Shown here: in pieces, positions 512 to 24,285 of the stretch | How positions within the stretch are numbered: the stretch's first letter is position 1 | Layout: each line of letters opens with the position of its first letter | Source: Candidatus Moraniibacteriota bacterium | GTDB taxonomy: Bacteria; Patescibacteriota; Minisyncoccia; Moranbacterales; UBA1568 | NCBI GenBank assembly: GCA_052035095.1 | Contig: JBPOHW010000008.1 | Coordinates: 3,060 to 67,059, forward strand | Direction: 5' to 3' | Length of the DNA: 64,000 nt | Notes under the pieces: model-generated | Told to the model about the DNA's origin: nothing | Databases searched by the model: none | Seen by the model: only the letters and a program-made list of their open reading frames with translations | Program-made: the position numbers and the translations under genes

Positions 512-724
512 TTGAAACCTATGAAAAGACAACCAAAACCAAAAGAAAAAGCATCAGAGATTCTGACGCTTCAGGAGGCGTGCGAGATTCTGCATTGCCA
601 TCCGAACACGCTTCGCAACTGGGACAACAAAGGATTTTTGAAAGCGATTCGGTTTGGGACACGGGGGGATAGGAGGTATCGGAGGGGAGAGGTGATAGGG
701 ATTCTTGATCGTGGGAAGGAGTGA
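512..724 (+). CDS. small HTH DNA-binding protein, excisionase/AlpA/MerR-like
   Basis: 70 aa; LTLQEACEILHCHPNTLRNWDNKGFLKAIRFG matches the excisionase-family helix-turn-helix. Stop lies 20 bp before the next ATG, which has an AAGAGGA RBS, so the two are operonic. Confidence 0.6.
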   Translation: MKPMKRQPKPKEKASEILTLQEACEILHCHPNTLRNWDNKGFLKAIRFGTRGDRRYRRGEVIGILDRGKE

Positions 725-743
725 TTCTTACAAAGAGGATAAT

Positions 744-3700
744 ATGAAATGGATCAACGCTAGCGACATCACGAATTGGGCGAATACAAACCAAAGACAA
801 TGTCAGGATACATTGCCGGAGTTGGTGCGTCGTCTTATTTTGGCTCACACCGTAAACGCCGTTGATAAATTTGATTTCCCCAGCGGCGATAGCGTCGCTA
901 CCGGTGGATGGGATGGTCGTCTTAAGACACCTGTTGTTTCGCCATTCTTTCCAAGCAGCCATTCCGGCTGGGAAATCGGAACTGAAAAGTCAGCTCAAAA
1001 AAAAGCAGAAGCAGACTATACAAAGCGAAGTGCGGATCCGTTAGGAATGGTACTCAATGAGACAACGTTTGTTTTTGTTACTCCACGATCGTTTCCAAAA
1101 CGTGCAAACTGGCAAAGCACAAAACAATCCACCAACACATGGAAAGATGTCAAAGTTATTGCCGCTGATGGATTAGAGCAATGGCTTGATAATACGCCAG
1201 CCGTTGCTTCGTGGTTTGCCCGTAAGATCAGCAAGGTCGTCTCGAATGGTATTCGGGATATTGAGGCTGTTTGGGAAGAGTGGTCGATAGGAACGAAGCC
1301 GGTGATGACACCAGCTCTCGTAATAGGTGGACGCACGACAGACGTCGAAGCCATTCAGAAATGGATCGCCGAAGCGCCGAGAATTCTTGAGGTACGAGGT
1401 GATCATCCAGATGAGGCATTTGCTTTTCTTTATGCTTCCATTGCAATGCTCCCCGAGACTGAAAGAGCACAGACGTTGGCTCGATGTTTAGTTGTTGAGA
1501 ATATCGGCGAGTTACGGGAATTAACCCAAGCTTTTCAAAATTATCCACTAATCATCGCTGCACCCGGCGAATGTATCAACGCCGCTTCTCTCGCTGTTTC
1601 CAAAGGCCACCATGTATTTATAAGCATGAACGCAACAGTTATTGGTTTTAGGGATATTCTTCGACTAGCTCGGCCGCAACGCGGTGCGGTAGAAAATATT
1701 TTACATGAGGGCGGCTTATCAGAAGCTGACGCACAGCGCATGGCCAGGGATTCCGGGCGTAGTATTCCCGTACTTCGCCGACATTTATTTCAATCCAATG
1801 CCGTTAGTGCTCCGGTATGGGCTAATGCCAAATCAGCACGGATACTCTTACCAGTTTTATTTGCCAACGCATGGGATGAGTACAAAGACGGAGATCGCAA
1901 AGTAATAGAGACCCTTTCCGGTATGAGCCATGACGACTTTGTTAAAGCTCTCACCCCTTTTTTATCTGTAGACGATTCTCCCATTCGCAAGGTTGGTAGT
2001 GTTTGGATGATCAAGTCTCCCTTGGACGCATGGTTTCTTCTCGCGCCACATCTTACACAGGATTCCTTAAAACTTTTTGAGCAGTCTTTATTGGGCGTCC
2101 TCACAAAGACAGATCCAAAATACGAATTGGAGGCGGACAAGCGATGGGCAGCTGCAATATATGGTAAATCAAATGCGTATTCTGAATGGCTTCGGAGTGG
2201 CTTTGTTGAATCGTTGGTGCTTCTTACCGTTTTCGGCAATCGCTCCCCACAAGTCCCATCCACACAGACGTTTGCGGATCATGTTGTCAAACAAGTATTT
2301 GCCACAGCGGATAAATGGGAGGCATGGGCTTCGATAAAGGACGCAACCCCATTATTTTCAGAAGCCGCACCGGATACATTCATGGAGGCGGTCGAACAAG
2401 GTATCGCAAAAACCCCGACTATCTTCCAAGAATTAATGAAGGATAGTGGGAGTGTATTTGGAGAGTGTCATCATTCCGGTCTTCTTTGGGCACTTGAGAG
2501 TATAGCGTGGAGTCAAGATTATTTTGCGCGAGCTGTAAACGTTTTGGTGGAGTTAGCCAATATAGATCCAGGCGGCAAATGGAGCAATCGAGCAATAAAT
2601 AGTATTAAAAACGTTTTCTTGCCACGTTTTCCGCAAACATACGCTACACCGGAACAACGTCTTGCGGCTTTGGATTCCCTTATCGCCAAATTTCCTAAAA
2701 AAGTTTGGGAATTCTCGCAAGGTTATTACAGTGGCGGAAGTTTTAGTGAATCACATCGCTTTCGTTGGCGCGACGCCGGTGGCAATCGCCGCGGATTGGA
2801 GCCGGAAGATAATGAGAACAATCGCGAATATCTCAATGCTCTCCTCCCCAAATTAATTGATCTTGCTGTTGCAAAAGAAAATCTCATAGCTTCTGCCGAT
2901 GAATTCACACAACTGCCGGACGATATACAGGAGCGATTACTTGGTGTACTTGAAAAAACAGATCCCGCTACTTTTTCAAAAGATGAACGTGCAAAGCTTC
3001 TGCAATGTATCCGAGAGGCATTGAATTGGACAAATAGCTACGGTGATGAAGATCGTCGCAAACAAGTGCCAGCTCTTAATCGAGTCTTGGAAAGATTCAC
3101 GCCGGAGGATGTGATTGAGCGTGTGGGTTGGTTATTGGGCAATCCGTGGCCACGGTTACCACAAGGAGAGCCTAAACAATATGACGCCAAAGATACAGCT
3201 GTTAAAACGGCGCAACAAGAAGCCGCACGCGAGGTACTGGATAAAGCGTCTTTGGATGAAATTTTTAAATTTGCCGGTACGATTCAGTATCAGGGAATTC
3301 TCGGTCATTCTCTCGCAAAAGCGGTGCGTGATGAAAAAGAGGATAGTACTGTGTTAGATGGCATATTGTCCCATATTACTGATATGCCGATTCTCATTCG
3401 GGGATACGCTGATGGCCGAGTTGAAGTTGCCGGGCCCGGTTGGATAGATACGCAGATCGAGAGAATGAAAACAAAAGGAAACTATTCGCCGCAGGCATGT
3501 GCGCTTCTGTATTTTGGTATACCAGAGGGTGCATCTACATGGTCGGCAGTTTCCGCCCATGGCAAAGATGTTGAGAGTACATATTGGAAGCAAGCAAGCG
3601 GATTCTCACAGACCAGTAAAGCAGATGATACTCCCATTGCCGTTGAAAAGTTATTGGATGTTAAACGACCGGAGGCCGCACTTCAAATTGCTGGTGATCC

Positions 3701-4532
3701 CCAAGTATCTATTCCAAGTGCGTTACTCCAACGATTGCTCCAAGAGCTTCTGATGATGGAAGATAAAAAGCTTCGTGCTGGAGTAATGGAAGAATTTCAT
3801 TTGGGGCACGTATTCAATCAGCTGTACGAAAAGAACGAACTATCAATTGAAGAAATGGCAAAATTAGAATGGCCATTTGCCGCACTCTTTGAGGAACTCA
3901 AGCAGTACACTTCTCATCCAATGGCACTTCATCGTGTTCTACAAAAAGATCCTCAATTTTTCTCCCAACTTATTACATTCATCTACAAACGAGATGATCA
4001 TGCGCCGGATTCTACTCGTGGCGATGTAGATGAGGAAACGGCGGAGCGACGCGCGCGCGTCGCTCATGAAGTCTTGAATTCTTGGTATCTCATACCCGGG
4101 TTAAAAGAGGACGGTACGCTTGATGAAAAAGAACTTACCGAATGGGTTGAGGCGGCACGCAAACAATGCACAGAAACCAATCATATAATAGGGTGCGATT
4201 TGCAGATTGGCTTCATGTTTGCTCATATACCGGGAGATCCCGACGGCACATGGCCACACGTTGGTGTTCGCAACCTTATAGAGCGCCTAAACAACGAAAC
4301 TATTGATCGGCATATTCAAAATGAGATTTATAATAGTCGCGGCGTTGTTTCAAAGAGCATCAATGACGGAGGTAAACAAGAGCGAGCACTTTCTGAAAAG
4401 TATAAAAAAATGAGCGAAGCCGTTAATTCAAAATGGCCACGTACCGCCGCCATGCTTCGCTCGATAGCTAAATCTTACGAACAACAAGCCAAGAGCGAGG
4501 ATATTGATTCAGATTTATATGATGTACGATAG
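744..4532 (+). CDS. large hypothetical protein, about 1262 aa, no recognisable catalytic motif, predicted mostly alpha-helical
   Basis: Uninterrupted 3.8 kb ORF. ATG at 744 is preceded by AAGAGGA. It follows the HTH gene and ends at a bidirectional terminator. No Walker, HxH, radical-SAM or other motif seen by eye. Confidence 0.7.
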   Translation: MKWINASDITNWANTNQRQCQDTLPELVRRLILAHTVNAVDKFDFPSGDSVATGGWDGRLKTPVVSPFFPSSHSGWEIGTEKSAQKKAEADYTKRSADPLGMVLNETTFVFVTPRSFPKRANWQSTKQSTNTWKDVKVIAADGLEQWLDNTPAVASWFARKISKVVSNGIRDIEAVWEEWSIGTKPVMTPALVIGGRTTDVEAIQKWIAEAPRILEVRGDHPDEAFAFLYASIAMLPETERAQTLARCLVVENIGELRELTQAFQNYPLIIAAPGECINAASLAVSKGHHVFISMNATVIGFRDILRLARPQRGAVENILHEGGLSEADAQRMARDSGRSIPVLRRHLFQSNAVSAPVWANAKSARILLPVLFANAWDEYKDGDRKVIETLSGMSHDDFVKALTPFLSVDDSPIRKVGSVWMIKSPLDAWFLLAPHLTQDSLKLFEQSLLGVLTKTDPKYELEADKRWAAAIYGKSNAYSEWLRSGFVESLVLLTVFGNRSPQVPSTQTFADHVVKQVFATADKWEAWASIKDATPLFSEAAPDTFMEAVEQGIAKTPTIFQELMKDSGSVFGECHHSGLLWALESIAWSQDYFARAVNVLVELANIDPGGKWSNRAINSIKNVFLPRFPQTYATPEQRLAALDSLIAKFPKKVWEFSQGYYSGGSFSESHRFRWRDAGGNRRGLEPEDNENNREYLNALLPKLIDLAVAKENLIASADEFTQLPDDIQERLLGVLEKTDPATFSKDERAKLLQCIREALNWTNSYGDEDRRKQVPALNRVLERFTPEDVIERVGWLLGNPWPRLPQGEPKQYDAKDTAVKTAQQEAAREVLDKASLDEIFKFAGTIQYQGILGHSLAKAVRDEKEDSTVLDGILSHITDMPILIRGYADGRVEVAGPGWIDTQIERMKTKGNYSPQACALLYFGIPEGASTWSAVSAHGKDVESTYWKQASGFSQTSKADDTPIAVEKLLDVKRPEAALQIAGDPQVSIPSALLQRLLQELLMMEDKKLRAGVMEEFHLGHVFNQLYEKNELSIEEMAKLEWPFAALFEELKQYTSHPMALHRVLQKDPQFFSQLITFIYKRDDHAPDSTRGDVDEETAERRARVAHEVLNSWYLIPGLKEDGTLDEKELTEWVEAARKQCTETNHIIGCDLQIGFMFAHIPGDPDGTWPHVGVRNLIERLNNETIDRHIQNEIYNSRGVVSKSINDGGKQERALSEKYKKMSEAVNSKWPRTAAMLRSIAKSYEQQAKSEDIDSDLYDVR

Positions 4533-4559
4533 ATTCAGAAATGACATTCGTTCTAAAAA

Positions 4560-4607
4560 ATATCCGAGCCGTCAACCAAATCGGCTCGGATATTTTTCTT
4601 TGTTTTC
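4560..4607. terminator. bidirectional rho-independent terminator between convergent genes
   Basis: Stem ATATCCGAGCCG, loop of 9 nt, stem CGGCTCGGATAT, then TTTTCTTTGTTTT. A-run on the other side. Confidence 0.55.
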
Positions 4608-4613
4608 ATTTTT

Positions 4614-5093
4614 TCATTCACGAATACCAATAACCTTGATCAGCGATAACACCTCTCCGATTTTTACTTCTCTCACCTCACCGACAGACGCGCCCATAAG
4701 CGGAGCCACGAAAGGCGCGGCGTAGGAAAATTCGTTCGGGTCTGTTTTTTCGAGAACCATGTAGCTCCCAACGACGACAACTTTTTCCTCGTGAGTATCC
4801 GTGTTCTGTATTGTGACTTTTGATCCGAGAGAGACATGCTTCGCGTGAACTGACGGCTCAACTATTTCAGCCCGTGCGTAAACTTTTTTCAATTCTTCGA
4901 GCGTACTGGCAAGCCTTTTTCTTTCCCGATCGGCTTCTTCAAAACCGTAGTTGTCATGCCACGTTTCCGAGCTCTGATGCGACATTTCCCCAACTTCAAA
5001 ACCAACCGTTTTCAGATTGTTTTTGAGCGCGTCGATATTTTTCTCAAGCGCCAAATAATCTTTTCGAAGAAAAAGGAATGATGCGTCTTTCAT
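4614..5093 (-). CDS. greA: transcription elongation factor GreA
   Basis: 159 aa. N-terminal coiled coil and C-terminal FKBP-like domain (GSKVTIQN...VVVVG...PLMGASVGEV) typical of GreA/GreB. Confidence 0.85.
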   Translation of the reverse strand: MKDASFLFLRKDYLALEKNIDALKNNLKTVGFEVGEMSHQSSETWHDNYGFEEADRERKRLASTLEELKKVYARAEIVEPSVHAKHVSLGSKVTIQNTDTHEEKVVVVGSYMVLEKTDPNEFSYAAPFVAPLMGASVGEVREVKIGEVLSLIKVIGIRE

Positions 5094-5617
5094 ATTGAAG
5101 ACTGTTCAATCTCAAGCATGAGAGCGACATATCCCTTTCGAATAATATTATCGCTTTGAATCCCGAGACTTACAAGAAGATTCATTATTTTTTCCTCTAT
5201 ATTTTCTCGACTCTCTTCATCGCCTCGCCCTTCGATCTCAACAAAGACTCCGAGATTTTCTATTTCATCAACATTGATTTCAAAATCTTCAAGACGATAG
5301 CTTGCTCGGCGTTTCTTGATTTCAACCACCTTTACATAGCCGCTCCCAAGAAGAAGCTGTTGGAGACCGTCGGAATCAGTGAGCGGAATATCAATATCCG
5401 GCCACGCGGTATCGTCGCCCAGAGCCTTGCCCTTGAACGTTAGTAATGACCCGTTTTCCTTCCGCCGAATACGCAAAATGAGCGAGCGATCTCTGTCGCT
5501 TTCATGGCGAAGATAAAAATCATGTTCGTTTGACGTTCCCCTGTGCTCTGCTTGTGTCGCCAAGGCGTTCCTTATTGCGTCGGGATCGTCAACGCTTGCC
5601 CGGAGCTCTATTTCCAT
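5090..5617 (-). CDS. CYTH-domain protein (triphosphate tunnel metalloenzyme, class IV adenylate cyclase / thiamine-triphosphatase fold)
   Basis: 175 aa with MEIELRA...E.E start and acidic/basic strand pattern of the CYTH fold. Its stop overlaps the greA start by 4 nt. Confidence 0.7.
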   Translation of the reverse strand: MEIELRASVDDPDAIRNALATQAEHRGTSNEHDFYLRHESDRDRSLILRIRRKENGSLLTFKGKALGDDTAWPDIDIPLTDSDGLQQLLLGSGYVKVVEIKKRRASYRLEDFEINVDEIENLGVFVEIEGRGDEESRENIEEKIMNLLVSLGIQSDNIIRKGYVALMLEIEQSSI

Positions 5618-5714
5618 AAATATGGCTTTACTTGAGGGAATGTTAGCGCATTTTTCTCAAAAAGAAAAGGCTAGCGCGTTGCGTTAGCCTCTGGTTTGTT
5701 GTGAGCTTTCTTTC

Positions 5715-6671
5715 CTACAGTTCTTTGCTCAATTCTTGAGCAATAGGGTGAGAAAAGTAGGCGTGAATCGGAAGAGAGAATGGCGGACCATCGCGGTGTA
5801 CGCAGTTTCGTACCATGAGCATTCCACGTTCCATTTCAAGTCTCGGACCGTACGCGAATTCATAGCACCCGCCATATATCCTCAGTTCGCAATTGGCGCA
5901 CATGCCTTCCAAAAAATGTGGCTGGATGAGTTTCAATTTGAAGGCAAACCCGTCTTCACAGCGCATATCAATGGAACAGCTCGAGCGTCCCCGAATGACA
6001 GACGCCCGCGTCGGAGTTGCTCCAAGCGTTTGGCACGCTCTTGCGAGAGAGGCATACGAGATTTCCGGAATTTCCAGCACGTTCATGAGACGCCACGAAA
6101 TATCTCTGTGTCTCACAAAGTCAGCAAGCGCGATCGCCGGCTGTTCCGTTTCGCCAATGCATGTATTGATCTTGAGACGAACCTTTCCATTGAGAGTCTC
6201 AATGAGATTGATTTGTTTCTCAAGCGCCTTTTTGCCCCACGCCGCATCTTTGGGCGGTGACATTATCTTCCCCAATTCCGCTGGGTCAAGAGTGTGAACG
6301 CTCATGTTGAGCTCATCGAGTCCCGACCATATGCACTCGAAATATCGCGAGTGCTTTGCCTGTCCGTTCGTTGTCATCTTCACTGTGAATCCCAAGCTCT
6401 TTGCCTTCACAATGAACTGGGTGATCTCGGGATGAATTGATGGCTCACCTCCGGTGAAATGCACTTCGGTAAATCCGAAGCGATCACGGAAGCGTACAAG
6501 CACATCGGAAAACTGCTTGTCATTCCGAATCGGTTGCGATGAGGGGTTGCCTTCCATGTGACAGAAATTGCATGTCCACTGGCACGGCACATGAAGCTTC
6601 ACGCGGAGGCTGTTGAGACGAGTCGTCTCTACTTTTCCCTGCGAAAGCAATTCTTCAAAAACATCATACAT
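5715..6671 (-). CDS. radical SAM enzyme, MoaA-like, with C-terminal auxiliary Cys cluster
   Basis: CQWTCNFC (CX3CX2C), FTGGEP, TTNG and C-terminal CANCELRIYGGC (CX2CX7C) resembling the MoaA auxiliary-cluster motif CxxCNRLR. Start is 2 nt after the kinase stop. Confidence 0.8.
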   Translation of the reverse strand: MYDVFEELLSQGKVETTRLNSLRVKLHVPCQWTCNFCHMEGNPSSQPIRNDKQFSDVLVRFRDRFGFTEVHFTGGEPSIHPEITQFIVKAKSLGFTVKMTTNGQAKHSRYFECIWSGLDELNMSVHTLDPAELGKIMSPPKDAAWGKKALEKQINLIETLNGKVRLKINTCIGETEQPAIALADFVRHRDISWRLMNVLEIPEISYASLARACQTLGATPTRASVIRGRSSCSIDMRCEDGFAFKLKLIQPHFLEGMCANCELRIYGGCYEFAYGPRLEMERGMLMVRNCVHRDGPPFSLPIHAYFSHPIAQELSKEL

Positions 6672-6673
6672 GA

Positions 6674-7249
6674 TTATCGCTCCTGTAAAAGCAATGACAC
6701 TTGCGCCTCGACTTGCTCCGCCGAGAGGTGATCGGTTTCAAGCACAAGCGACCATTGATGAGAATCCATGAAAGCCTTCTGCGCTCGATCAAGCAATCCG
6801 ACAGACTGCTCGATACGCTGATCATAGTCCTGCGATCCATCTCGCTTGTTTCTCCTTTCGGTTCTCGTTTTCGACGTAGCCGTAAGGAGTACGGAAACCG
6901 TCGACCAGAGAATGGGCAATTTTTCGGTATTTACAGAAGATACATCTACGCCAAGCACATGGTGCATGACGAGAGTCGAGTGAATATACCGATCAATAAC
7001 AACGCTCCTCCTCAAATCGATATCCGATCGGATTTTTCTCTGAACGGCAATAACCGAAGTAAGATAGTAGAAAAACCGAGTGTTTGAATCATCCAAAGAC
7101 TCTATCTCTTTGCGAATTGTTGAAAGAGGCGGTTGCGGCGTGTAGAGATATCGGAAACCGAGTTTTGAAGCGATGGCTTTGGCAAGGGTTGTTTTACCAA
7201 CACAATCCACACCCTCTACAACCAGAATTACCGGACTGGCATTTTGCAT
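6674..7249 (-). CDS. thymidylate kinase family nucleotide kinase (TMK-like)
   Basis: P-loop VVEGVDCVGKTT and DRY motif (VVIDRYIHST) typical of the dTMP kinase family; 191 aa. Confidence 0.75.
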   Translation of the reverse strand: MQNASPVILVVEGVDCVGKTTLAKAIASKLGFRYLYTPQPPLSTIRKEIESLDDSNTRFFYYLTSVIAVQRKIRSDIDLRRSVVIDRYIHSTLVMHHVLGVDVSSVNTEKLPILWSTVSVLLTATSKTRTERRNKRDGSQDYDQRIEQSVGLLDRAQKAFMDSHQWSLVLETDHLSAEQVEAQVSLLLQER

Positions 7250-7264
7250 GAGCGTTCTCCGCTA

Positions 7265-7762
7265 TCATTGAATTTCGCTGATTTCCCATGCTCCTTTGAG
7301 CACAGAACATTCGATCTCTTCTCCGTTTCCTTTTCCGAAAAGCGCTTTGCCAATCGGAGAAGATGGGCTTATCGCTGAAACTTTTTCACCCCCATAAGAG
7401 GGGTGCAAAAAAACTCCGCCACCTGCTCCTTCAGAAACGAGAAGAAACAGTTTTCTTTCCGCAGTATCAATATTCTCAATAGCCACTACAGAGCCGATAG
7501 AAACCTGATTGGAAACATCAGCATCTCTCTGGAGAAGGCTCTCAAGTAAAGCGAGAACAGTTTTTGCTTCAAGCAATCGCTTATTCTGCCCGCCCGCGAG
7601 ATATTGAGCTTCTTCGAGAAAAGTATCATAGCGAGAAATCATCGCGCCTTCCGCTTCTTGCGCGTCTTTGAGTGACACTTGTCTCGCTTGCTCGGTTCTT
7701 TCGATCTCTTCTCTCTTGTTCGCGATAATCTGCGCGAACAAGATTTTTGCTGTTTCGTGCAT
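7265..7762 (-). CDS. GreA/GreB-family transcription factor paralog
   Basis: 165 aa. Coiled-coil N-terminus plus FKBP-like C-terminal domain (GSVVAIENIDTAERKLFLLVSEGAGGG...SPIGKAL). It is the second Gre homolog in the same operon. Confidence 0.7.
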   Translation of the reverse strand: MHETAKILFAQIIANKREEIERTEQARQVSLKDAQEAEGAMISRYDTFLEEAQYLAGGQNKRLLEAKTVLALLESLLQRDADVSNQVSIGSVVAIENIDTAERKLFLLVSEGAGGGVFLHPSYGGEKVSAISPSSPIGKALFGKGNGEEIECSVLKGAWEISEIQ

Positions 7763-7914
7763 GATTCTCTCCTTTTTTTCTCTTCAATTAGTAAGATACT
7801 CGTCTTAAAATTAAGACCTCGTACAATAGCACGTTTAATAATTATAAGTCAATATCCGTGACTATTTTATGGCTTTACTGTGGAATTTTCGCGTAAATTA
7901 GTCAAAAAACTACC

Positions 7915-8025
7915 CCATCATAAGTCGCTCCATCCGTTCCTGCAAAACTTTCAGCCCATTGCCACATTCAAGCCAGTTTGAGAGAATACGAAGGAAGAAA
8001 TCGTTCCCATGTGTACTCCCCTGTT
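7915..8025 (+). repeat. about 95 bp intergenic repeat, copy 1 of 3
   Basis: Core CAGCCCATTGCCACATTCRAGCCAKTTTGAGAGAATACG..GG.AGAAAT.GT.CCCATG.GTAC shared with the copies near 9655 and 12185. Confidence 0.8.
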
Positions 8026-8178
8026 TCAGTAGTTGAAAAAGGATGCAGGACTTTTTCTATTTCCAAAGCAACTCAAAAAATAACTTATACACCGCGCATC
8101 ATAAAGCCGGACAGAATAAACTTCCCGTCCTTTTACTTGAAGCAAATTCTTTGTTTGAAAAGTTCGCTTTCATAATGT

Positions 8179-8535
8179 TTGCGGTATAGTCAAACTTTTA
8201 TGGAGAAGAAAACTTTTATTGTAGGCTCAGTGCTATTGGTTACGATGGCAGTGCTTTTTGACGGCTTTATGAGCACAGCATACCTATTAGGAAGTTTCGT
8301 CTTATGTTGGGCAGTTTATTATGGAGTTAGATATACAGGGTTAACTCGAGCAAAGAGTATTAATCCAAAACAAATAGTTCACATGGCGCTTGCAACTTCA
8401 ATCCTGATTCTGACAGGTATCACATTTATTTTCGGAACAGGAATCAACTTAATTGTCTATGCCGTCTGGCTCGTCTTCTTCTATTGGCACGAGTTGTCTT
8501 CCTTGAAACTAAAAAAAACTGCTTTGATTGAATAG
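8179..8535 (+). CDS. small integral membrane protein
   Basis: 118 aa with three or four hydrophobic helices; no known motif. Confidence 0.45.
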   Translation: MRYSQTFMEKKTFIVGSVLLVTMAVLFDGFMSTAYLLGSFVLCWAVYYGVRYTGLTRAKSINPKQIVHMALATSILILTGITFIFGTGINLIVYAVWLVFFYWHELSSLKLKKTALIE

Positions 8536-8635
8536 TTTTTTACTTCATTGACATCAAATGATTCTTCATCTTTTTTGGATTATTGATTTATAAATGTGGA
8601 ATCGAGACACAATTATACTTTGAAATGAGGACATT

Positions 8636-9205
8636 ATGATTGATACTACTCTTTACATTTTTGTTATTTATCCACTGGGCATCTTCATAGGCTTCGCCTC
8701 TTTTACGATGATATGGATGCCTATTCTAATTGGGATACCAATGGCCACCTACTGGTCATTGAAAGGGTGTGTACGATATAGAAGCATATTCTCCTATATA
8801 CCAAGTATTATATTTGGTTTTGTTTTATTCACACTTATTGGCTTTTTCTTTTTGAGAATTCTTCCTGCAATTGGAGAGAACAATGGATTTTATGTGGCGC
8901 AAATAATCGGCAGTCTATTTGCACTATTTTATTGCTTAAAGAAAATGGGCAGGCGTGATGTTCAACTTGATTTTTGGACGAAAATGTTGAAGAACAAATA
9001 CATGATCTACGAACACCCTATAATTGCCGAGAAGCTTCAGTTTTTATTCGAAGAAAGATTCGGAGAAGATGCCAAAAAAATGGCTACTCAACTTATGATG
9101 GAAACGAAAGCGAAGAGAATTGATGAGCTTATAGAAAAAAGAGAAGCGTTAAAAAAGCAGATTCTTGAAAAAGTTGAAAAAAAGAAGCAAGACGGCGAAT
9201 GGTAA
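8636..9205 (+). CDS. integral membrane protein with charged C-terminal tail
   Basis: 189 aa. Four TM helices followed by a KE-rich tail. Overlaps the next gene by 7 nt. Confidence 0.45.
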   Translation: MIDTTLYIFVIYPLGIFIGFASFTMIWMPILIGIPMATYWSLKGCVRYRSIFSYIPSIIFGFVLFTLIGFFFLRILPAIGENNGFYVAQIIGSLFALFYCLKKMGRRDVQLDFWTKMLKNKYMIYEHPIIAEKLQFLFEERFGEDAKKMATQLMMETKAKRIDELIEKREALKKQILEKVEKKKQDGEW

Positions 9206-9648
9206 GTTCAAACACAAGTATTGTGAAAAACCTCTACCTCGACATTGACGGGGTGATTCTTGATAAACGAGGATGTCCCGCCTACGGCTTGGAAGGTTTT
9301 TTACGCTTTGCAATAGTCCACTTCTCTTGTTTTTGGCTCACGACGCACTGTAGCGGAAATGCGAAACTAACCTTATCCTATCTCACGTCCAAGGTGCCAA
9401 AAGAAGCTTTGGAATTGATGTCAGGCATCCGACCAACCGCATGGAGCCTTTGGAAAACAGAGGCTATAGACTTCACCAAACCATTCTATTGGCTCGATGA
9501 TTATGCCTTTGATGGAGAAAGAAAAGTCTTACGAGAACATAGATGCGAATCCTCCCTTATCTTGATAAATCTTGAGACAAACCCGAAGCAACTGGAGGCA
9601 TTGTGTAAGCAACTGAAAGAGACATTTTCAGTGGCTACCTCGCCATAA
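9199..9648 (+). CDS. HAD-superfamily phosphatase-like protein
   Basis: LYLDIDGVILD matches HAD motif I (DxDGV) and FYWLDD resembles motif IV; 149 aa. Confidence 0.5.
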   Translation: MVSSNTSIVKNLYLDIDGVILDKRGCPAYGLEGFLRFAIVHFSCFWLTTHCSGNAKLTLSYLTSKVPKEALELMSGIRPTAWSLWKTEAIDFTKPFYWLDDYAFDGERKVLREHRCESSLILINLETNPKQLEALCKQLKETFSVATSP

Positions 9649-9654
9649 TCCGTT

Positions 9655-9765
9655 CCATCCGCTCACAAATTACCTCCAGCCCATTGCCACATTCGAGCCA
9701 TTTTGAGAGAATACGGGGGCAGAAATTGTTCCCATGTGTACCCCATCGTCCCAGCAAAATAAATT
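9655..9765 (+). repeat. about 95 bp intergenic repeat, copy 2 of 3
   Basis: Same core as copy 1. Its 3' end abuts the ATG of the next gene. Confidence 0.8.
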
Positions 9766-9767
9766 GT

Positions 9768-10178
9768 ATGCTTTACAAAGTTATTCTTGTTTCTCTTCTT
9801 CATAGAAGAAACAAAAGTGAGATATTGCTCATTAAAAGAAACCGTGAACCAGAATATGGTAAATGGTCGCTTTCTGGTGGCACAGGTGCATTAGAAAAAG
9901 AGGCAGATCCCAAAAAAGCAATTTTCATGGAAGTACTCGGGGATTTCTCGACAAACATCCTTGATCCAAAGCTTTTTTCCATAAAGTATGCCAATTTTTC
10001 AGAGCCGACCCTCCATTTTTATTTTGAAGGCGAATTAGAAAGTGAACCAAAAATTCAAGATATGAAAACAGTGAAAGAACTTGGATGGTTTGTGCCAAGA
10101 GAAATTTTGAAAATGGACATCGCCTTTCAAGATATTGATAAAGAAGCCGTTAAACAATTTATGAAGAATTCAAAATAG
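9768..10178 (+). CDS. Nudix-fold protein with degenerate Nudix box
   Basis: ILLIKRNREPEYGKWSLSGG...GALEKE has the GX5E part of the box but the REx2EE part is degenerate. Start moved to ATG 9768 because upstream codons lie inside the repeat. Confidence 0.5.
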   Translation: MLYKVILVSLLHRRNKSEILLIKRNREPEYGKWSLSGGTGALEKEADPKKAIFMEVLGDFSTNILDPKLFSIKYANFSEPTLHFYFEGELESEPKIQDMKTVKELGWFVPREILKMDIAFQDIDKEAVKQFMKNSK

Positions 10179-10180
10179 TT

Positions 10181-10207
10181 CCAACTTCGTCCCACAGTCC
10201 CAGCTGA
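10181..10207 (+). promoter_or_regulatory. short conserved leader motif TTCYAACTTCGTCCCACAGYCCCAGC, copy 1
   Basis: Also present at 10713-10740 and, reverse-complemented, at 16651-16674. Each copy is 8-15 nt upstream of an ATG. Confidence 0.5.
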
Positions 10208-10215
10208 CAAACTCT

Positions 10216-10713
10216 ATGAGCGATAAAATAGAACTTGTTGATTACAAAGGGAATCCTACGCAGGTTTCTTGCTTGGGTTGCGCCCGAGAAAACGGCGAAA
10301 TGGAAAGAGTAGGCACCATACTCACCACTAAACATTTCGACGCTCACCAGGACTTTGAAATTCCTATCCCTGGCTTTATCATTATTTCTTCGAGGCGACA
10401 TTTGCAAAGCATCGATGAGTTTACTGATGAAGAAAAGCTAGATTTTATCGATACTCTTATTGCGGTGAGGACTGGGATGAGAAAGACTCTTGATATTGAT
10501 GTTGTCTATCTCATTCAAGAAGAAGATACTTCGCATCATTTCCACATTTGGGTATTCCCTCGTTATGATTGGATGGCAGAGAAATTTGGCAAGAAAACAC
10601 CTTCACTCCAACCGATTATGGAATATGCTCGTGAAAATCTAAAGACTATAGAAAATCTTAAGAAAGTTGAAGAAGCAGTCAATAAACTGAAGACTCATTT
10701 TGAAGTAAATTAG
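10216..10713 (+). CDS. HIT-family hydrolase
   Basis: Histidine triad HFHIWVFPR (HxHxHxx); 165 aa. Confidence 0.8.
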   Translation: MSDKIELVDYKGNPTQVSCLGCARENGEMERVGTILTTKHFDAHQDFEIPIPGFIIISSRRHLQSIDEFTDEEKLDFIDTLIAVRTGMRKTLDIDVVYLIQEEDTSHHFHIWVFPRYDWMAEKFGKKTPSLQPIMEYARENLKTIENLKKVEEAVNKLKTHFEVN

Positions 10714-10748
10714 TTCTAACTTCGTCCCACAGCCCCAGCACATATTCT

Positions 10749-11306
10749 ATGGTTACTATCCCTGAACAATACGCTTCTCTTATCCACATCAAATCACTTT
10801 CGTGGAAAGAAGTGTTTGACACATGGCGAAATCTGGAAGCATGGCAAGAGTCTTGGAAAGAGCATTGGACTGAACGAGGATTCAACTCATGGGATGAATG
10901 GCGCGAAGCATATGCGGCCCCACTTCATCCGGAAACACTTTCCTGGGAAATGTATCATATTACTGATCCCATTAAAGACCTCCCCCTTTTTTATGGCACC
11001 CCCACAAAAGGATGGATTGATAAAGCCTACGAGGGAGAAATAACAAAACAACTGAAAGACATTTCCAATTTACCTATTATCACTGAGAACCAGAAGGTTC
11101 TCACTATCAAACAAGCGTTTCCGAAAGAAACGATGCTTACAGGCATCGTTCATGAGGGAAAAATCGTTCTCATTGAGGGAATGCACCGTGCTAACGCACT
11201 CGCCACATGGAATCCTAAGACCCCCTTTGTTGGAAACGTCACAATCGCTCTTGTTCAGTGGGATAGCTCGATTCCGGCTCTCGGAGGAAATTACAAGGTT
11301 AAATAA
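10749..11306 (+). CDS. hypothetical protein (Trp-rich N-terminus)
   Basis: 185 aa ORF preceded by the conserved leader motif; no recognised domain. Confidence 0.45.
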   Translation: MVTIPEQYASLIHIKSLSWKEVFDTWRNLEAWQESWKEHWTERGFNSWDEWREAYAAPLHPETLSWEMYHITDPIKDLPLFYGTPTKGWIDKAYEGEITKQLKDISNLPIITENQKVLTIKQAFPKETMLTGIVHEGKIVLIEGMHRANALATWNPKTPFVGNVTIALVQWDSSIPALGGNYKVK

Positions 11307-11460
11307 AGTAAGTTTTTCTTTCATTTCTTTCCAACCCACAGTTTCGAACACATCCAATAAGCCCAGCAAATACACTGCCTATGAAAAAGAAAAAAGGCGC
11401 TGTTTACCAGTCGCCTTTTGAATTTGAAATAGTTGTCGGGAGATTATCTTTGCTCAGAGT

Positions 11461-12027
11461 CTAACACTTACCGGGATGATTCCAATCGAAGAAAACTCTT
11501 TGCTCGCGATCCGTAACATCGCCGTCGAGTTCACCAATGTCTTCTCCCGGATACATGGAATGCACGATGACTTTTGGTTGGTCGTTCTCACACCTAAACT
11601 CCACAACAAGCGTGAGTTTCTGCGTTTGAGGAGCGAGTAGGTCAGTCCGATCGCGTTTTATACGAAGTCCGAAGCTTCTGCGATTCAAGTCAAACCGCTC
11701 CAAGACCTCCGGAGCATATATTTCGATCGGAACCGTACTTTCCCAACCGATAGACTCCTTACAAGTGATTTGGATACTCTGTGTTTCAAAGATTCCCTCA
11801 CTCCACATATCGACAATGTGCTTCGAAAGCTGTTTACGAACAGTTTTATCTTGGAAAAGATTCCTCGCCGAATTCCAGCAACTGAAATTCCCCGCAAGTG
11901 CGCGAGTAGAACCGCGAAAACAGGTTGTTCTTAACCGATCCTCGGTACGACGAGGAATAACAACGCTTGCCCAAAGACTGGGGCATACTTTTATACGAAA
12001 GAACATTTCTTCCTCTCCTGCCAGCAT
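11461..12027 (-). CDS. hypothetical protein
   Basis: 188 aa ORF with moderate GC and no motif. Start uncertain. Confidence 0.3.
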   Translation of the reverse strand: MLAGEEEMFFRIKVCPSLWASVVIPRRTEDRLRTTCFRGSTRALAGNFSCWNSARNLFQDKTVRKQLSKHIVDMWSEGIFETQSIQITCKESIGWESTVPIEIYAPEVLERFDLNRRSFGLRIKRDRTDLLAPQTQKLTLVVEFRCENDQPKVIVHSMYPGEDIGELDGDVTDREQRVFFDWNHPGKC

Positions 12028-12184
12028 GAGCCAGCCTGTAAATATACAGGGAAAATCCTACCAGCCTTTGCATTCCGGTAGAATTTTCTATTATGCGGTT
12101 GACAGTGGCTTTTGTCAAACACTATTCACCGTCCGCCTTCTAAAATATCCGAATCCAAACATTAAAGCGCCAAAGTTTTTTCAT

Positions 12185-12290
12185 CCGTTCCCGAAAAACC
12201 TCCAGCCCATTGCCACATTCGAGCCAGTTTGAGAGAATACGGGGGAAGAAATCGTCCCCATGCGTACCCCACAAGTCCCAGCCAATATAT
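12185..12290 (+). repeat. about 95 bp intergenic repeat, copy 3 of 3
   Basis: Same core as the other copies. It ends at the ATG at 12291. Confidence 0.8.
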
Positions 12291-12467
12291 ATGAAGACTC
12301 CGCATACTTCGACGTATAAGGGGAAGCGTGTGTATATTCGCCTCAAAAGCGGCGAACGGATCGTGGGAAAATTCGAAGGGAAAGATACGCATTTTATGCA
12401 TATCGAAAAACGAAAAATACGAATTGCGGAAGTAAAAGCATTCGCCATCTATCGAGGAAAAACATAA
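12291..12467 (+). CDS. small Sm/Hfq-like protein (58 aa)
   Basis: VYIRLKSGERIVGKFEGKDTHFMHIE...VKAFAI resembles the Hfq Sm1/Sm2 pattern (V.I.L.NG...G.I...D.F...L......YKHAI). Start placed after the repeat. Confidence 0.35.
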   Translation: MKTPHTSTYKGKRVYIRLKSGERIVGKFEGKDTHFMHIEKRKIRIAEVKAFAIYRGKT

Positions 12468-12641
12468 AAAACTCCCATCACAAAAAATCTCTCCACCCAT
12501 ACTATGAAAGAGGAGCGGAGAGGTTGACAGTAAGCAACGATATCCCTACACTGCGAGTGATCGTAAAGAGAGGTCGCAACGCAAGCCTCTTCTTGCGAGA
12601 GTTCCAGAAATCCCAGCACCATCAGTCGGGGGAAGTAAAAA

Positions 12642-12911
12642 ATGACTCGTCAGGAAATCCAAGAAAGAGTTATGAAGGTGGCAACAGAGGTTTTTAACCT
12701 CAAGCCGGAGGAGATTTCGCTCACCGATCACTTTGTACACAATTTAGGAGCTGATTGGTCCAAAGTCGAAGAATTCGTACTGAAACTGGAAATTGCGTTC
12801 GATGTATATCTTATGTACGAGGACACCGGAGACATCATCTCCGTTCAGACGGCGGTCAAACACCTCCTCGGAGCTTTCGATACCACTGGAGATTTTGACA
12901 CCTCCGAATAG
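12642..12911 (+). CDS. acyl-carrier-protein-like four-helix protein
   Basis: 89 aa with a LGADWSKVEEFVLKLEIAF region resembling the ACP DSLD helix, though the Ser position is shifted. RBS GGGGGAAG upstream. Confidence 0.45.
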   Translation: MTRQEIQERVMKVATEVFNLKPEEISLTDHFVHNLGADWSKVEEFVLKLEIAFDVYLMYEDTGDIISVQTAVKHLLGAFDTTGDFDTSE

Positions 12912-19635: not shown

Positions 19636-19709
19636 CGGGGACGACCGGGCTCGAACCGGCGACCTTCTGCGTGACAGGCAGACGCTCTAACCAACTGAGC
19701 TACGCCCCC
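19636..19709 (-). tRNA. tRNA-Asp (GTC)
   Basis: Cloverleaf: GGGGGCG acceptor, GCTC-AGTTGGTTA-GAGC D arm, anticodon loop CTGTCAC, T loop TTCGAGC, discriminator G. Confidence 0.9.
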
Positions 19710-19740
19710 AAACATTCAATTTTTTCTCTCTGATTTTCCT

Positions 19741-19828
19741 TTGGTACCAGGGGCGAGATTCGAACTCTTGATCCGCCTCAGGCGGACTTATGCGTTCAAT
19801 ATCCCACCTTACCCCCGTACCATTTTTG
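19741..19828 (-). pseudogene. degenerate tRNA-like fragment (3' half shared with the disrupted tRNA at 19955-20058)
   Basis: Contains CATAAGTCCGCCTGAGGCGGATCAAGAGTTCGAATCTCG, 39/40 identical to the 3' half of the neighbouring tRNA-like copy. 5' half unrelated, T stem mismatched, ends form an 11-bp inverted repeat. Confidence 0.5.
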
Positions 19829-19902
19829 TAGCAGGGGCGAGATTCGAACTCGCGACCTACGGCTTATGAGTCCGTCGCTCTAACCAACTGAGCTACCCTG
19901 CC
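19829..19902 (-). tRNA. tRNA-Met (CAT), elongator-type or Ile2-type
   Basis: GGCAGGG acceptor, anticodon loop CTCATAA, T arm GCGAG-TTCGAAT-CTCGC, discriminator A. Confidence 0.85.
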
Positions 19903-19954
19903 GTAAAAATGGTACAGAATAAGTTTACATTACCCTGATAAAGCTGACTGGGGA

Positions 19955-20058
19955 AATACTCTCACCGAGATTCGAACTCTCGATCCGCCTCAGGCGGACT
20001 TATGAGTCCCGTGCTCCCTGCCTGCCGGCAGGCAGGTAACCAACTGAGCTACCCTGGC
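19955..20058 (-). pseudogene. tRNA-like gene (CAT anticodon loop) disrupted by a 20-bp perfect palindrome in the D-loop
   Basis: GCCAGGG-TA-GCTC-AGTTGGTTA-[CCTGCCTGCCGGCAGGCAGG]-GAGC, then CGGGA-CTCATAA-GTCCG. 3' acceptor strand cannot pair and the T stem is non-canonical. Confidence 0.55.
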
Positions 20059-20211
20059 AAAAAGTACCATATCGATTGGAAAGAAACAAGGGCGGGAAAA
20101 GAACCGCTCTCCCAAGAGCTTACCAGAAAGCCACAATTCTTTCAAGGGAACCTCGCCTTCAAAAGAAAGCGCCTCCTCAAAATCAAAGGAAGCGCGATAA
20201 CTCCGGAAAGG

Positions 20212-20532
20212 CTAGAGCGAAACATTCAAAACTTCCCGTTCAATACTCGGAATGAGGCTGAGAAATACTTCTCTAAAAGGCTCTCCTTCCCTCTCAGCCA
20301 AAGCAAAAATCGAATCAAGCTCTTCGGAAAGTTTCAGTTGCCGAGCCGCTTTCTCTCGTGGGAGTGAAATTGCACGGCGAATTGACACAAACCGCTTCGC
20401 CAAATCGACAAGCATTTCTCCTTGTTGGAGGGAAAGCCCATTGTTCTCAACCAGCGAAAAAACCATCGATCGCACCCTTTGATCGGACAGGACTCTCCCG
20501 TGAAGCACCCTATTCAAGCTTAACGCTGTCAT
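20212..20532 (-). CDS. hypothetical protein
   Basis: 106 aa ORF between the tRNA cluster and the HD gene; no motif. Competing + strand ORF at 20002-20367. Confidence 0.25.
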   Translation of the reverse strand: MTALSLNRVLHGRVLSDQRVRSMVFSLVENNGLSLQQGEMLVDLAKRFVSIRRAISLPREKAARQLKLSEELDSIFALAEREGEPFREVFLSLIPSIEREVLNVSL

Positions 20533-20585
20533 ACCAACCTCCTCTTGTAAACATTAAAGAACGAATTCCACCACCGTATTGATCG

Positions 20586-21998
20586 TCAAGACGCCTCCGC
20601 CATTTTCCTCAAAAGAGCAATATCATTTTTTATATCCGAAAGAATGTTTTTCACTTCGCTACGAACAAACTCCACAACCTCCCTTGCAAGGAGAACGTCG
20701 CCGCCGCTTTCCCTGACTCTTACTTGCCACTTTTCAAGGGCTTCCGGAAGTGAGAGATTCTCATCGTCCTCTATTTCCGATTCTTTGTCAATATCCACAG
20801 GACCGGTGTGCCCAAGTCCCTCTCTCGATATTTCATCTATCATACAAAGAGCCGCTACTTGGGAATTGAACGCCCGCGGCTCCCGCCGCACATCGCCCGC
20901 AATGATGGCAAGCGTCTTTTCAAGAGAATTTGCAAGTTTATACGATCGCGTCGACGAGGATATCGCCTCAAACTCATCGCAGAACCGTATAAGTGAAGGA
21001 GCAATGTTGGGTATGTCCGGATCGGCATGGTGGTGGTGTGCCGCAAGCATCACCTGAAATTCAGAATACCCGTACTTCTCAAGAATAGGTTGCGATTTCT
21101 CCTCGTGAGCATCGAGAATCTCCCGCAAAGTCATCTGTCCCGAAAAGCCGACGCGTTCCAAACGTCCTATCCGAATTTGAACCCACGAATCCTCTTCATT
21201 TTGAAGGCGAGTAGCTTGCTCCGCGTCGGTATCTCCCGCCATATCGGGATGCTGTTTCCGATACTCCAAGCGAAAGAGTGTCTCCGCAGGCATAAACATA
21301 TTCACCCGTTTTCCGGAAAAGGTGGAGCGAACTGTTTCTTCGGAAACTTCAGGAGAAAGCGGCTCTTCCAAAGAAGCAGTTGCTCGATCATGTGCCCTTC
21401 CCGCTTTCGAAAGAATTTCCCGGGCAAAATCCCGTTCATTTTTTTTCTCGCTCTCGCAACACCGGACAAGATACGCTTCACTCTCGGAATCGCGTACGGA
21501 ATTTTCTATGACATCGGCGGTGATATTAAGTTTCCCAATATCATGCACAACGGCAACTCGAAGAATCTCCTTCATAACCTCATCCTCACCCTTTCCGGAT
21601 TCCCGCCCAAGCGGGGCGGCTATCGACTCAAGTGTCCGCCCTCCCGCCGAAAAAATTCGTTCAAATTTTTCGAGCGCCAACCGAAACGTACGCAATGAAT
21701 GAGAGAAGAGAATCTTTCGATCATCATCATACAGCCATATATAGTCGAGGAGCTTCCAGTCTTTTTGCTCGAGAACGCCTTCAAGGGCGAGAACGTACTT
21801 TTCCGGAAGAATATCTTGCTCTCGAATATACCGCTTCATATGCTCGATAAACTCCGGATGCTCACTTACCGCTCTTTCCACCGCGGGAAGATCTCCCTCC
21901 GCCGCAATCGCATGAGTCTTCCGTTCCGCATCCTCCAATAAACCTGAAGCTTCTCCCTTTCCATCACGCGCTTTGAAAGACAGCTTCTCGACCGCCAT
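20586..21998 (-). CDS. HD-domain phosphohydrolase
   Basis: VVHDIGK and AAHHHHADPD motifs typical of the HD/HD-GYP superfamily. Start trimmed to MAVEKLS, which has a GGAGG RBS. Confidence 0.7.
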   Translation of the reverse strand: MAVEKLSFKARDGKGEASGLLEDAERKTHAIAAEGDLPAVERAVSEHPEFIEHMKRYIREQDILPEKYVLALEGVLEQKDWKLLDYIWLYDDDRKILFSHSLRTFRLALEKFERIFSAGGRTLESIAAPLGRESGKGEDEVMKEILRVAVVHDIGKLNITADVIENSVRDSESEAYLVRCCESEKKNERDFAREILSKAGRAHDRATASLEEPLSPEVSEETVRSTFSGKRVNMFMPAETLFRLEYRKQHPDMAGDTDAEQATRLQNEEDSWVQIRIGRLERVGFSGQMTLREILDAHEEKSQPILEKYGYSEFQVMLAAHHHHADPDIPNIAPSLIRFCDEFEAISSSTRSYKLANSLEKTLAIIAGDVRREPRAFNSQVAALCMIDEISREGLGHTGPVDIDKESEIEDDENLSLPEALEKWQVRVRESGGDVLLAREVVEFVRSEVKNILSDIKNDIALLRKMAEAS

Positions 21999-22146
21999 GT
22001 CCGATCCGCCTCCGCCGGTTCTCGCGCCGCCGGTTTCCTCCAAATTCGGCTGTTCCCAAAAACGAAACATACTCGTAACAAAAAAGCGATACACCCCCAG
22101 TGTACCGCCCTTCTTCTTTCCATTCAAGGCACGTCGCTCGCTTGCC

Positions 22147-22206
22147 ACGTCGTTGCACGAACGACGGTGGCGAGCGACGTCGTTGCACGAACGACGGTGG
22201 CGAGCG
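22147..22206. repeat. perfect 30-bp tandem duplication (ACGTCGTTGCACGAACGACGGTGGCGAGCG x2), each with an internal hairpin
   Basis: Direct tandem copies at 22147-22176 and 22177-22206. GTCGTT-GCACG-AACGAC hairpin in each copy. Flanking ACGTCGCTCGC pairs with GCGAGCGACGT. Confidence 0.85.
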
Positions 22207-22244
22207 ACGTGCCAAGGCATCAGCACCGGAAAAATTCCGCAACG

Positions 22245-24065: not shown

Positions 24066-24211
24066 AGACGAAACATCCCCATCAGAAGACGGGGATATTC
24101 CAAAAACAGATTTTCATGTGTTGCGGGGGCAGGATTTGCCCCGTCATTCGACGGGGCATCCCGTCGAATGACGGGATGAACCTTCCGTAAACCAAGATCT
24201 TCTTCCCAATG

Positions 24212-24285
24212 TTGCGGGGGTGGGATTTGAACCCACGGCCTCCTGGTTATGAGCCAGGCGAGCTGCCAGACTGCTCCACCCCGCG
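24212..24285 (-). tRNA. initiator tRNA-fMet (CAT)
   Basis: CGCGGGGTGGAGCAG 5' end identical to E. coli tRNA-fMet; C1-A72 mismatch pattern; anticodon loop CTCATAA; T loop TTCAAAT. Confidence 0.9.

Follow-up and report, generated by a model that had tools for sequence, protein, structure and literature searches.

We describe a five-gene cassette in which Gre-fold proteins, which to our knowledge have been known only as stand-alone factors of the RNA polymerase secondary channel, are integral partners, in some cases by gene fusion, of a nucleotide-type radical S-adenosylmethionine enzyme (rSAM), a nucleoside monophosphate (NMP) kinase and a triphosphate enzyme. The cassette occupies the minus strand at positions 4614-7762 of a 64,000-nucleotide stretch of a Candidatus Moraniibacteriota genome (contig JBPOHW010000008.1, assembly GCA_052035095.1), and by "the window" we mean this whole stretch. 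We give roughly an even chance to a reading in which this accessory system makes a modified nucleotide and the Gre-like proteins couple that chemistry to RNA polymerase through its secondary (NTP-entry) channel, with CYTH and GreL2 providing the turn-off. The genes are as follows:

7762..7265, minus strand: GreL1, 165 aa, divergent Gre/Gfh1-like protein; coiled-coil hairpin at the N-terminus, Gre domain at the C-terminus
7249..6674, minus strand: kinase, 191 aa, P-loop NMP kinase of the thymidylate-kinase family
6671..5715, minus strand: rSAM, 318 aa, AbmM/MoaA-like, with two clusters
5617..5090, minus strand: CYTH, 175 aa, triphosphate-tunnel metalloenzyme of the CyaB-like subgroup
5093..4614, minus strand: GreL2, 159 aa, second Gre/Gfh1-like paralog

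All five open reading frames (ORFs), which a preliminary description had listed from the letters of the DNA, were confirmed at these coordinates, as were the junctions it reported: a 2-nt gap from the kinase stop to the rSAM start and a 4-nt ATGA overlap between CYTH and GreL2. The GreL1-kinase spacing is 15 nt. The Pfam domains found are the GreA_GreB C-terminal domain (twice), Thymidylate_kin, Radical_SAM and CYTH.

Linkage and fusion of Gre-like genes with the enzyme genes

The rSAM-anchored set comprised 85 loci from species-representative genomes together with other look-ups, and a CYTH gene, normally the adjacent one, lies within 5 kb of the rSAM gene in 82 of these 85 genomic loci; the CYTH proteins fall into two sub-clusters. 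Since many unrelated contigs carry this gene set again, with protein identities of 30-50%, its assembly in the window is not a matter of chance. Within this set, loci of the candidate phyla radiation (CPR), whose members are tiny uncultured bacteria, at 45-50% identity retain GreL1-kinase-rSAM-CYTH(-GreL2) in unrelated neighbourhoods. A metagenome search with GreL1 alone as the query returned 80 loci, and the kinase and/or the rSAM stands beside GreL1 in 73 of them. Where such GreL1-anchored loci extend at least 2.5 kb to both sides (n=15), the rSAM, the kinase and CYTH are each found in 13, and all three together in 11. There are at least four gene orders among the loci:

Order 1: GreL1-kinase-rSAM-CYTH(-GreL2)
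Order 2: GreL1-kinase-rSAM with a convergent CYTH
Order 3: (CYTH-)rSAM-GreL1-kinase
Order 4: divergent CYTH-rSAM and GreL1-kinase

The kinase directly follows GreL1 in almost all of these arrangements, only part of the family has GreL2, and the GreL-linked rSAMs form several sequence clusters, interleaved with rSAMs that are accompanied by CYTH only.

The association extends to gene fusion. Three independent rSAM::Gre fusion proteins were found, each of which translates stop-free from its contig and each with the rSAM as its N-terminal part:

P0128: GreL1-type tip ESRFDT; the kinase follows
P0152: GreL2-type tip SSETWHDN; a kinase precedes and a CYTH gene is convergent; contig seen in 4 samples
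P0172: GreL1-type tip ESRYDT

A search for close relatives of P0128 found no further fused homologues. In structures of Gre factors bound to RNA polymerase the N-terminus of the docked factor is near the channel entrance, so that with the rSAM first, as in the fusions, the enzyme would come to lie at the channel's mouth. The preliminary description had noted that the enzyme trio sits between two Gre paralogs and had left the functional link to them unexplained; the flanking position holds, and the link itself is a strongly conserved association, fusions included, which goes beyond mere adjacency; no other feature of the system is conserved so strongly. A third Gre-like gene, as judged from its sequence (149 aa), was seen about 3 kb from the cassette at 9344-9793 on the minus strand of L016, a metagenome-assembled genome (MAG) labelled Gammaproteobacteria.

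The preliminary description had named the last gene GreA. Both GreL1 and GreL2 score above the cut-off for PF01272 (39 bits for the GreA_GreB C-terminal domain of GreL1), and against the NCBIfam GreA model, with its cut-off of 139 bits, they reach only 33 and 49 bits, respectively; the best PDB sequence match of both is the inhibitor Gfh1, and an approximate E. coli GreA sequence detects neither of them by phmmer. Judged by these scores, then, both genes are divergent Gre/Gfh1-like paralogs, and the name GreA did not hold. The AlphaFold2 (AF2) model of GreL1 (predicted local distance difference test, pLDDT, 87) has helices at residues 3-39 and 44-78 with tip residues 40-47, and indicates a complete two-domain Gre fold, as in Gfh1, GreA, GreB and Rnk. 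All 14 of its Foldseek matches at E<=0.001 are Gre-family structures (GreA, GreB, Gfh1, a Gre/Gfh1 chimera, 3bmb and 2pn0), and its template modelling (TM) score against RNA polymerase-bound Gfh1 is 0.64-0.68. We note that Rnk is a Gre-fold protein with a functional link to a nucleotide kinase. From the fold, GreL1 and GreL2 are predicted to bind RNA polymerase via the secondary channel.

The coiled-coil tip of Gre factors reaches the polymerase active site, and in both GreL families conservation is highest at the tip. In GreL1 the most conserved stretch reads EAEGAM-x-SRYDTF-x-EEAQYL, with S43, R44, Y45, T47, E50 and E51 invariant and D46 at least 90% conserved; in GreL2 the motif is SSETWHDNxxFEE, with an invariant S-x-x-W-H-D-N. 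The C-terminal SP[IL]GxAL motif of the Gre-like protein is also retained. When aligned with the approximate E. coli GreA reference, the position of GreA D41 is Ser or Thr in both GreL families and E44 becomes Asp. The tip chemistry of the GreL proteins (S-R-Y-D-T or S/T-W-H-D-N) thus differs from the D-x-x-E of GreA and from the four Asp residues of Gfh1, and the GreL genes further stand apart from the rest of the Gre family in their fixed genomic association with, and occasional fusion to, a radical SAM gene.

Such a conserved tip might also be a substrate. The kinase, rSAM and CYTH would then install a modification, possibly derived from a nucleotide, on the invariant tip, much as EF-P is lysylated or EF2 receives diphthamide; the physical linkage of the enzymes to the Gre-like proteins, and the fact that one enzyme set is common to two different Gre paralogs, would fit as well as the tip conservation does. 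We consider this very improbable, given that the same rSAM+CYTH pair is widespread without a Gre protein and that, for all three enzymes, the relatives use free nucleotides as substrates.

Identity of the radical SAM enzyme, kinase and CYTH protein

The rSAM contains the motifs given in the preliminary description, namely CX3CX2C (C30/C34/C37), GGEP (74-77) and a MoaA-style auxiliary CxxC...C (C258, C261, C269), to which a fourth invariant Cys, C290, is added to give a CX2CX7C...C pattern at the C-terminus. Together with PF04055 and a partial TIM-barrel fold in a confident AF2 model (pLDDT 92.5), CX3CX2C and GGEP place it in the radical SAM superfamily. The family is small, with 159 clusters (50% identity) at E<=1e-30 among 1.84 billion representatives. 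It also includes larger proteins: P0100 and P0238 (605-606 aa) and P0150 (570 aa) are fusions, two with an N-terminal SorC-type sugar-binding domain and one with C-terminal tetratricopeptide repeats, and P0219, P0222, P0231 and P0236 (~920-1070 aa) are giants with three radical SAM domains each.

MoaA is the best full-length structural match of the rSAM model (TM ~0.6), both enzymes have two Fe-S clusters, R23 and R277 of the rSAM align with R17 and R268 of MoaA, and some family members are auto-annotated by JGI as "cyclic pyranopterin phosphate synthase". One might therefore suppose that the enzyme is MoaA, serving molybdenum cofactor (Moco) housekeeping, and that its Gre, kinase and CYTH genes are neighbours by accident. 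This supposition is effectively refuted. Against the MoaA equivalog models TIGR02666, TIGR02668 and NF001199 the rSAM scores 69, 78 and 71 bits where the cut-offs are 284, 325 and 231; Pfam detects PF04055 only, without the Mob_synth_C domain (PF06463) that real MoaAs carry; and the protein ends ...SKEL where MoaAs end ...IGG, so that the Gly-Gly tail is missing. In alignment with annotated MoaAs the family has a specific CxFCHxEG in place of CxYC and a 12-residue insert between CX2C and the R-L strand, bearing an extra invariant Cys and a Glu, and the equivalent of MoaA R266 is lost; the C-terminal cluster of MoaA is a three-Cys CX2CX13C, whereas that of the rSAM has four invariant Cys. The neighbours argue in the same direction: CYTH accompanies the rSAM in nearly every genomic locus, as given above, and clustering gave no other conserved neighbour beyond the kinase, the Gre-like genes and lineage-specific regulators, MoaC not having been searched for in the loci. 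A MoaC/MoaB-like ORF was not found in the window either, in agreement with the preliminary description, in a weak test with approximate E. coli queries. The family is moreover rare and patchy. All MoaA-specific criteria that were tried fail, and "MoaA-like", as the rSAM had been called, stands for the fold and not for a bona fide MoaA; the latter scenario, which the preliminary description had set against its own proposal, falls with the equivalog scores. A further likeness is that each enzyme has an obligate downstream partner that acts on triphosphates, MoaC there and CYTH here.

A true viperin was likewise considered and rejected. The rSAM scores 68 bits against the NCBIfam viperin model NF038283 (cut-off 180), the PADLOC pVip model (2e-19) aligns to residues 26-201 only, and viperin superposes on the core alone (TM ~0.45). 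By its sequence, then, the rSAM is neither a bona fide MoaA nor a viperin. Its best profile match among solved structures is AbmM (74 bits), with which it has in common CxFCHxEG and the C-terminal C...C-x-E...R-L...R-x-C-L; identity is ~20% and the significant alignment is confined to the N-terminal ~110 residues.

The kinase matches Pfam PF02223 (39 bits, cut-off 27) and falls short of the NCBIfam dTMP kinase model (38 bits, cut-off 83), which points to a protein with an NMP-kinase fold that is not an orthodox Tmk. It has a P-loop and retains the DRY motif as well as the arginines of the LID, and its PADLOC matches are PDC-M51B (3.6e-26) and VakA (1.2e-15). PADLOC gave no matches for GreL1, GreL2 or CYTH, and we rejected assignment to a known PADLOC defence system, matches being limited to the kinase (PDC-M51B, VakA) and the core of the rSAM (pVip).

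CYTH matches Pfam PF01928 (5e-21), passes the class IV adenylate-cyclase-like model TIGR00318 (96 bits, cut-off 58) and has the archaeal triphosphatase Saci_0718 as its best PDB match. The catalytic set is conserved (E2, E4, R6, R49, R51, K64, K102, R104, D117, E127, E129): an ExExK variant in which K is replaced by R at R6, the basic tunnel residues and the C-terminal ExE are all present, which identifies the protein, at the level of sequence, as a triphosphate-tunnel metalloenzyme and a predicted cyclase or hydrolase.

The cyclase-like score brings to mind an alarmone. The product might be a signalling nucleotide that acts at the interface of RNA polymerase and the Gre-like protein, as ppGpp does with DksA (a functional parallel for Gre-fold secondary-channel factors), at a level set by CYTH as hydrolase or cyclase. 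Synthetase, hydrolase and secondary-channel cofactor would all be at hand, the Arg, Tyr and Asp of the tip would suit nucleotide contact, and at one locus (L194) a Crp/cNMP-binding regulator and a response regulator stand next to the cassette. The rarity, patchiness and variable flanks of the system do not fit a core regulatory circuit, however; a slow, oxygen-sensitive radical SAM enzyme would be an unusual alarmone synthase, and a copy is carried by a phage. We regard an alarmone as improbable.

Transcription units and a proposed action on RNA polymerase

The preliminary description spoke of a five-gene operon and made no mention of the 97-nt spacer between the rSAM and CYTH genes. On the coding strand this spacer contains a hairpin followed by a U-run, and such a hairpin and U-run are kept in 6 of 7 related CPR rSAM-CYTH spacers that were folded, in spite of diverged sequences; the seventh, from L002, has the strongest hairpin of the set with a tail of merely CUUUCU. 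The signals in and around the cassette are:

5659..5692, minus strand: GC-rich intrinsic-terminator-like hairpin and U-run inside the 97-nt rSAM-CYTH spacer
4555..4593, minus strand: terminator hairpin and T-run, read from the sequence as ATATCCGAGCCG...CGGCTCGGATAT then TTTTT, between GreL2 and a convergent 1275-aa gene
7823..7852, minus strand: candidate sigma-70-like promoter upstream of GreL1, TTGACT, 18-nt spacer, (TG)TATTGT, a pattern match from a consensus scan

Because a terminator-like hairpin that is conserved in relatives separates the rSAM from CYTH, the window-type cassette is probably not a single operon but two separately controlled units, GreL1-kinase-rSAM and CYTH-GreL2. In many other loci CYTH is convergent to the rSAM.

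A 13-mer, CAGTAAAGCCATA, was seen at 5621-5633 and 7868-7880 on the minus strand with 0 and 1 mismatch, only right before the CYTH start and ~100 nt ahead of GreL1. We rejected it as a regulatory site, since the GreL1 copy is not kept in the closest relative, L006, and its significance is doubtful.

We infer a modified nucleotide as the product because the relatives of the rSAM (AbmM, MoaA and then the viperins) all act on nucleoside di- or triphosphates (NDPs or NTPs), the kinase is an NMP kinase and the catalytic set of CYTH is intact. In the reading that we favour, the TMK-like kinase would convert an NMP to the NDP, from which a housekeeping nucleoside-diphosphate kinase would make the NTP, and the AbmM/MoaA-like rSAM would remodel the sugar or the base of the nucleotide. 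GreL1 would bind RNA polymerase so that its S-R-Y-D-T tip reaches the active centre, and the product would act there on transcription, most likely by arrest. The CYTH triphosphatase would then destroy or process the triphosphate, and GreL2, the paralog closer to GreA, might reset the polymerase. CYTH and GreL2, with the role of the latter only possible, would thus make up a separately transcribed turn-off or antidote module, for which ThmC, described below, offers an analogy on the side of CYTH.

A bolder version, which we offer tentatively and hold to be doubtful, would have the radical SAM enzyme act directly at RNA polymerase. The Gre-like protein, whether separate or fused, would be an adaptor that docks the enzyme at the mouth of the secondary channel and feeds an analogue of the enzyme's own making into the active site, for a programmed and reversible arrest that is reset by CYTH/GreL2 and used by CPR bacteria and at least one phage.

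The preliminary description compared the kinase and rSAM with viperin and CMPK2. The parallel is real, in that pVip and viperin/CMPK2 pair a radical SAM enzyme with an NMP kinase to give a nucleotide analogue that acts on polymerases, and the PADLOC matches to pVip and VakA lie at the sub-family level; by analogy, though, AbmM/AbmG and ThmABC are better-matched precedents. Viperins have no counterpart of the C-terminal auxiliary Fe-S cluster domain of our rSAM, and neither CYTH nor Gre-like partners are part of pVip systems. AbmM carries out a sulfur-for-oxygen swap that forms the thiofuranose core of albomycin, with an Fe-S cluster as sulfur donor, and works with the kinase AbmG (PMC12691670). 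In Photorhabdus, thmA (a radical SAM enzyme), thmB (a kinase) and thmC (an NTPase) lead to 4'-thiothymidine, ThmC confers self-resistance, and no relationship is reported between ThmA and AbmM, which are described as distinct (PMC12691670). The cassette resembles these clusters in the logic of combining a nucleotide-directed radical SAM enzyme with a nucleoside or nucleotide kinase and, in the case of Thm, a self-resistance NTPase; it differs in that its kinase is TMK-type and not dNK/AbmG-type, its phosphohydrolase is CYTH, and a Gre-like protein is absent from those clusters. A literature search, within the library that could be queried, found no paper that ties these components together and none of relevance on PDC-M51. 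The logic of the enzymes is a variant of known nucleotide-analogue systems, and the obligate coupling to a Gre fold appears to be new.

Alternatively, the Gre-like proteins might serve self-protection. The system would make a toxic nucleotide analogue directed at phages, as prokaryotic viperins do, or at competitors or host cells, for which 4'-thiothymidine is the parallel; CYTH would clean the producer's own pool, and the Gre-like factors would excise the analogue from the RNA 3' end, Gre factors being known to remove misincorporated 3' nucleotides. The self-resistance role of ThmC, the pVip and VakA matches of the rSAM and kinase, the recurrence of nucleotide hydrolases (NUDIX, HD and MazG-like) in the vicinity and the exporter-containing, biosynthetic-cluster-like locus of the Streptococcus relatives are all consistent with this. 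It is harder to reconcile with the Ser/Thr at the catalytic D41 position of the approximate GreA reference in both GreL families and with a best match to the anti-cleavage factor Gfh1; nor would one expect an enzyme to be fused to its immunity factor, or a phage copy to keep GreL1 without CYTH. On balance we think self-protection unlikely, if well short of negligible.

Several observations weigh against the arrest of RNA polymerase by a modified nucleotide, our favoured reading. The chemistry is predicted from sequence and folds, the binding of GreL1 and GreL2 to RNA polymerase from the fold alone, and the mapping of the tips onto GreA D41/E44 depends on an approximate E. coli GreA sequence. 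For two of the three fusions the evidence is one contig each. Most loci, those of Streptomyces and Streptococcus, carry the rSAM+CYTH pair without a Gre protein or kinase, from which it follows that the chemistry needs no RNA polymerase and that CYTH may be a biosynthetic partner and not an antidote. A strict split into attack and antidote is further weakened by arrangements in which CYTH overlaps the rSAM (L087), where co-transcription is required. Lastly, defence genes are only weakly enriched near the cassette (Fic in 3 loci, type I restriction-modification in 1).

Distribution, mobility and implications

The window itself is CPR DNA, and the closest genome is another Candidatus Moraniibacteriota chromosome, with 94% protein identity in the rSAM. 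Homology to it is limited to window positions 4612-8019 (88% nucleotide identity), the flanks being unrelated, and this, together with the rarity of the family, is why we take the system to be accessory and, by its sequence pattern, horizontally moving. The clade of cassettes is spread over many CPR lineages, and the set is also present in two MAGs labelled Gammaproteobacteria and in one Peribacteria MAG. A single phage copy, obtained from the rSAM-based scan, lies on the 62.7-kb contig L090 (IMGVR_UViG_3300017593_001448), which is bona fide phage by its portal (2e-67), small terminase and exonuclease genes; a GreL1-based scan of viral contigs found nothing. There the kinase, rSAM and GreL1 (tip QSRYDT) occupy 5468-7372, between recombination genes and the portal gene, with no CYTH and no GreL2, in keeping with an "attack" module able to serve without its "reset" counterpart.

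Loci with the pair only are found in Streptomyces and other actinomycetes, often near an HTH_31/DUF5753 regulator, and in mitis-group streptococci, where rSAM and CYTH are accompanied by a 407-aa AlaRS-like protein, two ATP-grasp ligases and a transporter of the major facilitator superfamily. The streptococcal arrangement, seen in Streptococcus sp. KHUD_011 (L023, ~3300-12700) and 10 similar loci, also has two Rgg-like regulators alongside, identified by sequence. It looks like an uncharacterised biosynthetic gene cluster for a peptidyl nucleoside.

Neighbours elsewhere are heterogeneous, with some Fic, NUDIX, type I restriction-modification, MazG-like and SLFN-helicase genes among many housekeeping genes, and we rejected a consistent defence-island context, for which such a mixture is weak evidence. 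Unrelated loci repeatedly have a nucleotide pyrophosphatase or hydrolase gene close to the cassette, namely NUDIX in the window (9684-10178, plus strand) and in L194 (4236-4649), HD in L016 (6979-7620) and MazG-like in L195 (4163-4510). They may be extra pool-sanitising or immunity genes.

Within the window, a direct repeat of ~137 nt occurs in three copies of 69-74% identity (7910-8046, 9635-9771 and 12161-12297), each intergenic and upstream of a plus-strand gene, and one of them just upstream of GreL1; it also borders the cassette in the closest genome (L006 4643-4764). It has no Rfam match and may be a lineage-specific promoter, a small RNA or an element like a miniature inverted-repeat transposable element. 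On the other side, 512-4532 on the plus strand holds the 1275-aa ORF and a 70-aa HTH_17/MerR-type (excisionase-like) ORF that overlaps its start. The large ORF is convergent with GreL2 and absent from the closest relative; it has no Pfam match and a weak PADLOC match to PD-Lambda-4_A (3.7e-5), and is probably a separate island gene. An Rfam scan of the window gave five tRNA genes only (minus strand, 19636-27922), without matches in the cassette. GC skew is strongly negative over the entire window.

Antivirals and antibiotics are coming in rapidly growing numbers from radical SAM systems for nucleotide analogues (viperins, AbmM, ThmA), and we know of no such system that is wired to accessory factors of RNA polymerase. 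The tight and sometimes fused link between enzyme and Gre fold suggests an undescribed way of acting on transcription. If our favoured reading is correct, the cassette would yield a new natural nucleotide analogue and a new way to control or poison bacterial RNA polymerase via the NTP-entry channel, and it would provide testable roles for the so far uncharacterised pair of rSAM and CYTH found widely in Streptomyces and mitis-group streptococci. On the same reading the cassette would also offer a rare functional handle on the accessory biology of CPR bacteria and their phages. Should the enzyme indeed be docked at the polymerase, the cassette would found a new class of systems that target RNA polymerase, and it would be the first known case of a Gre-fold protein with an enzyme for a partner.

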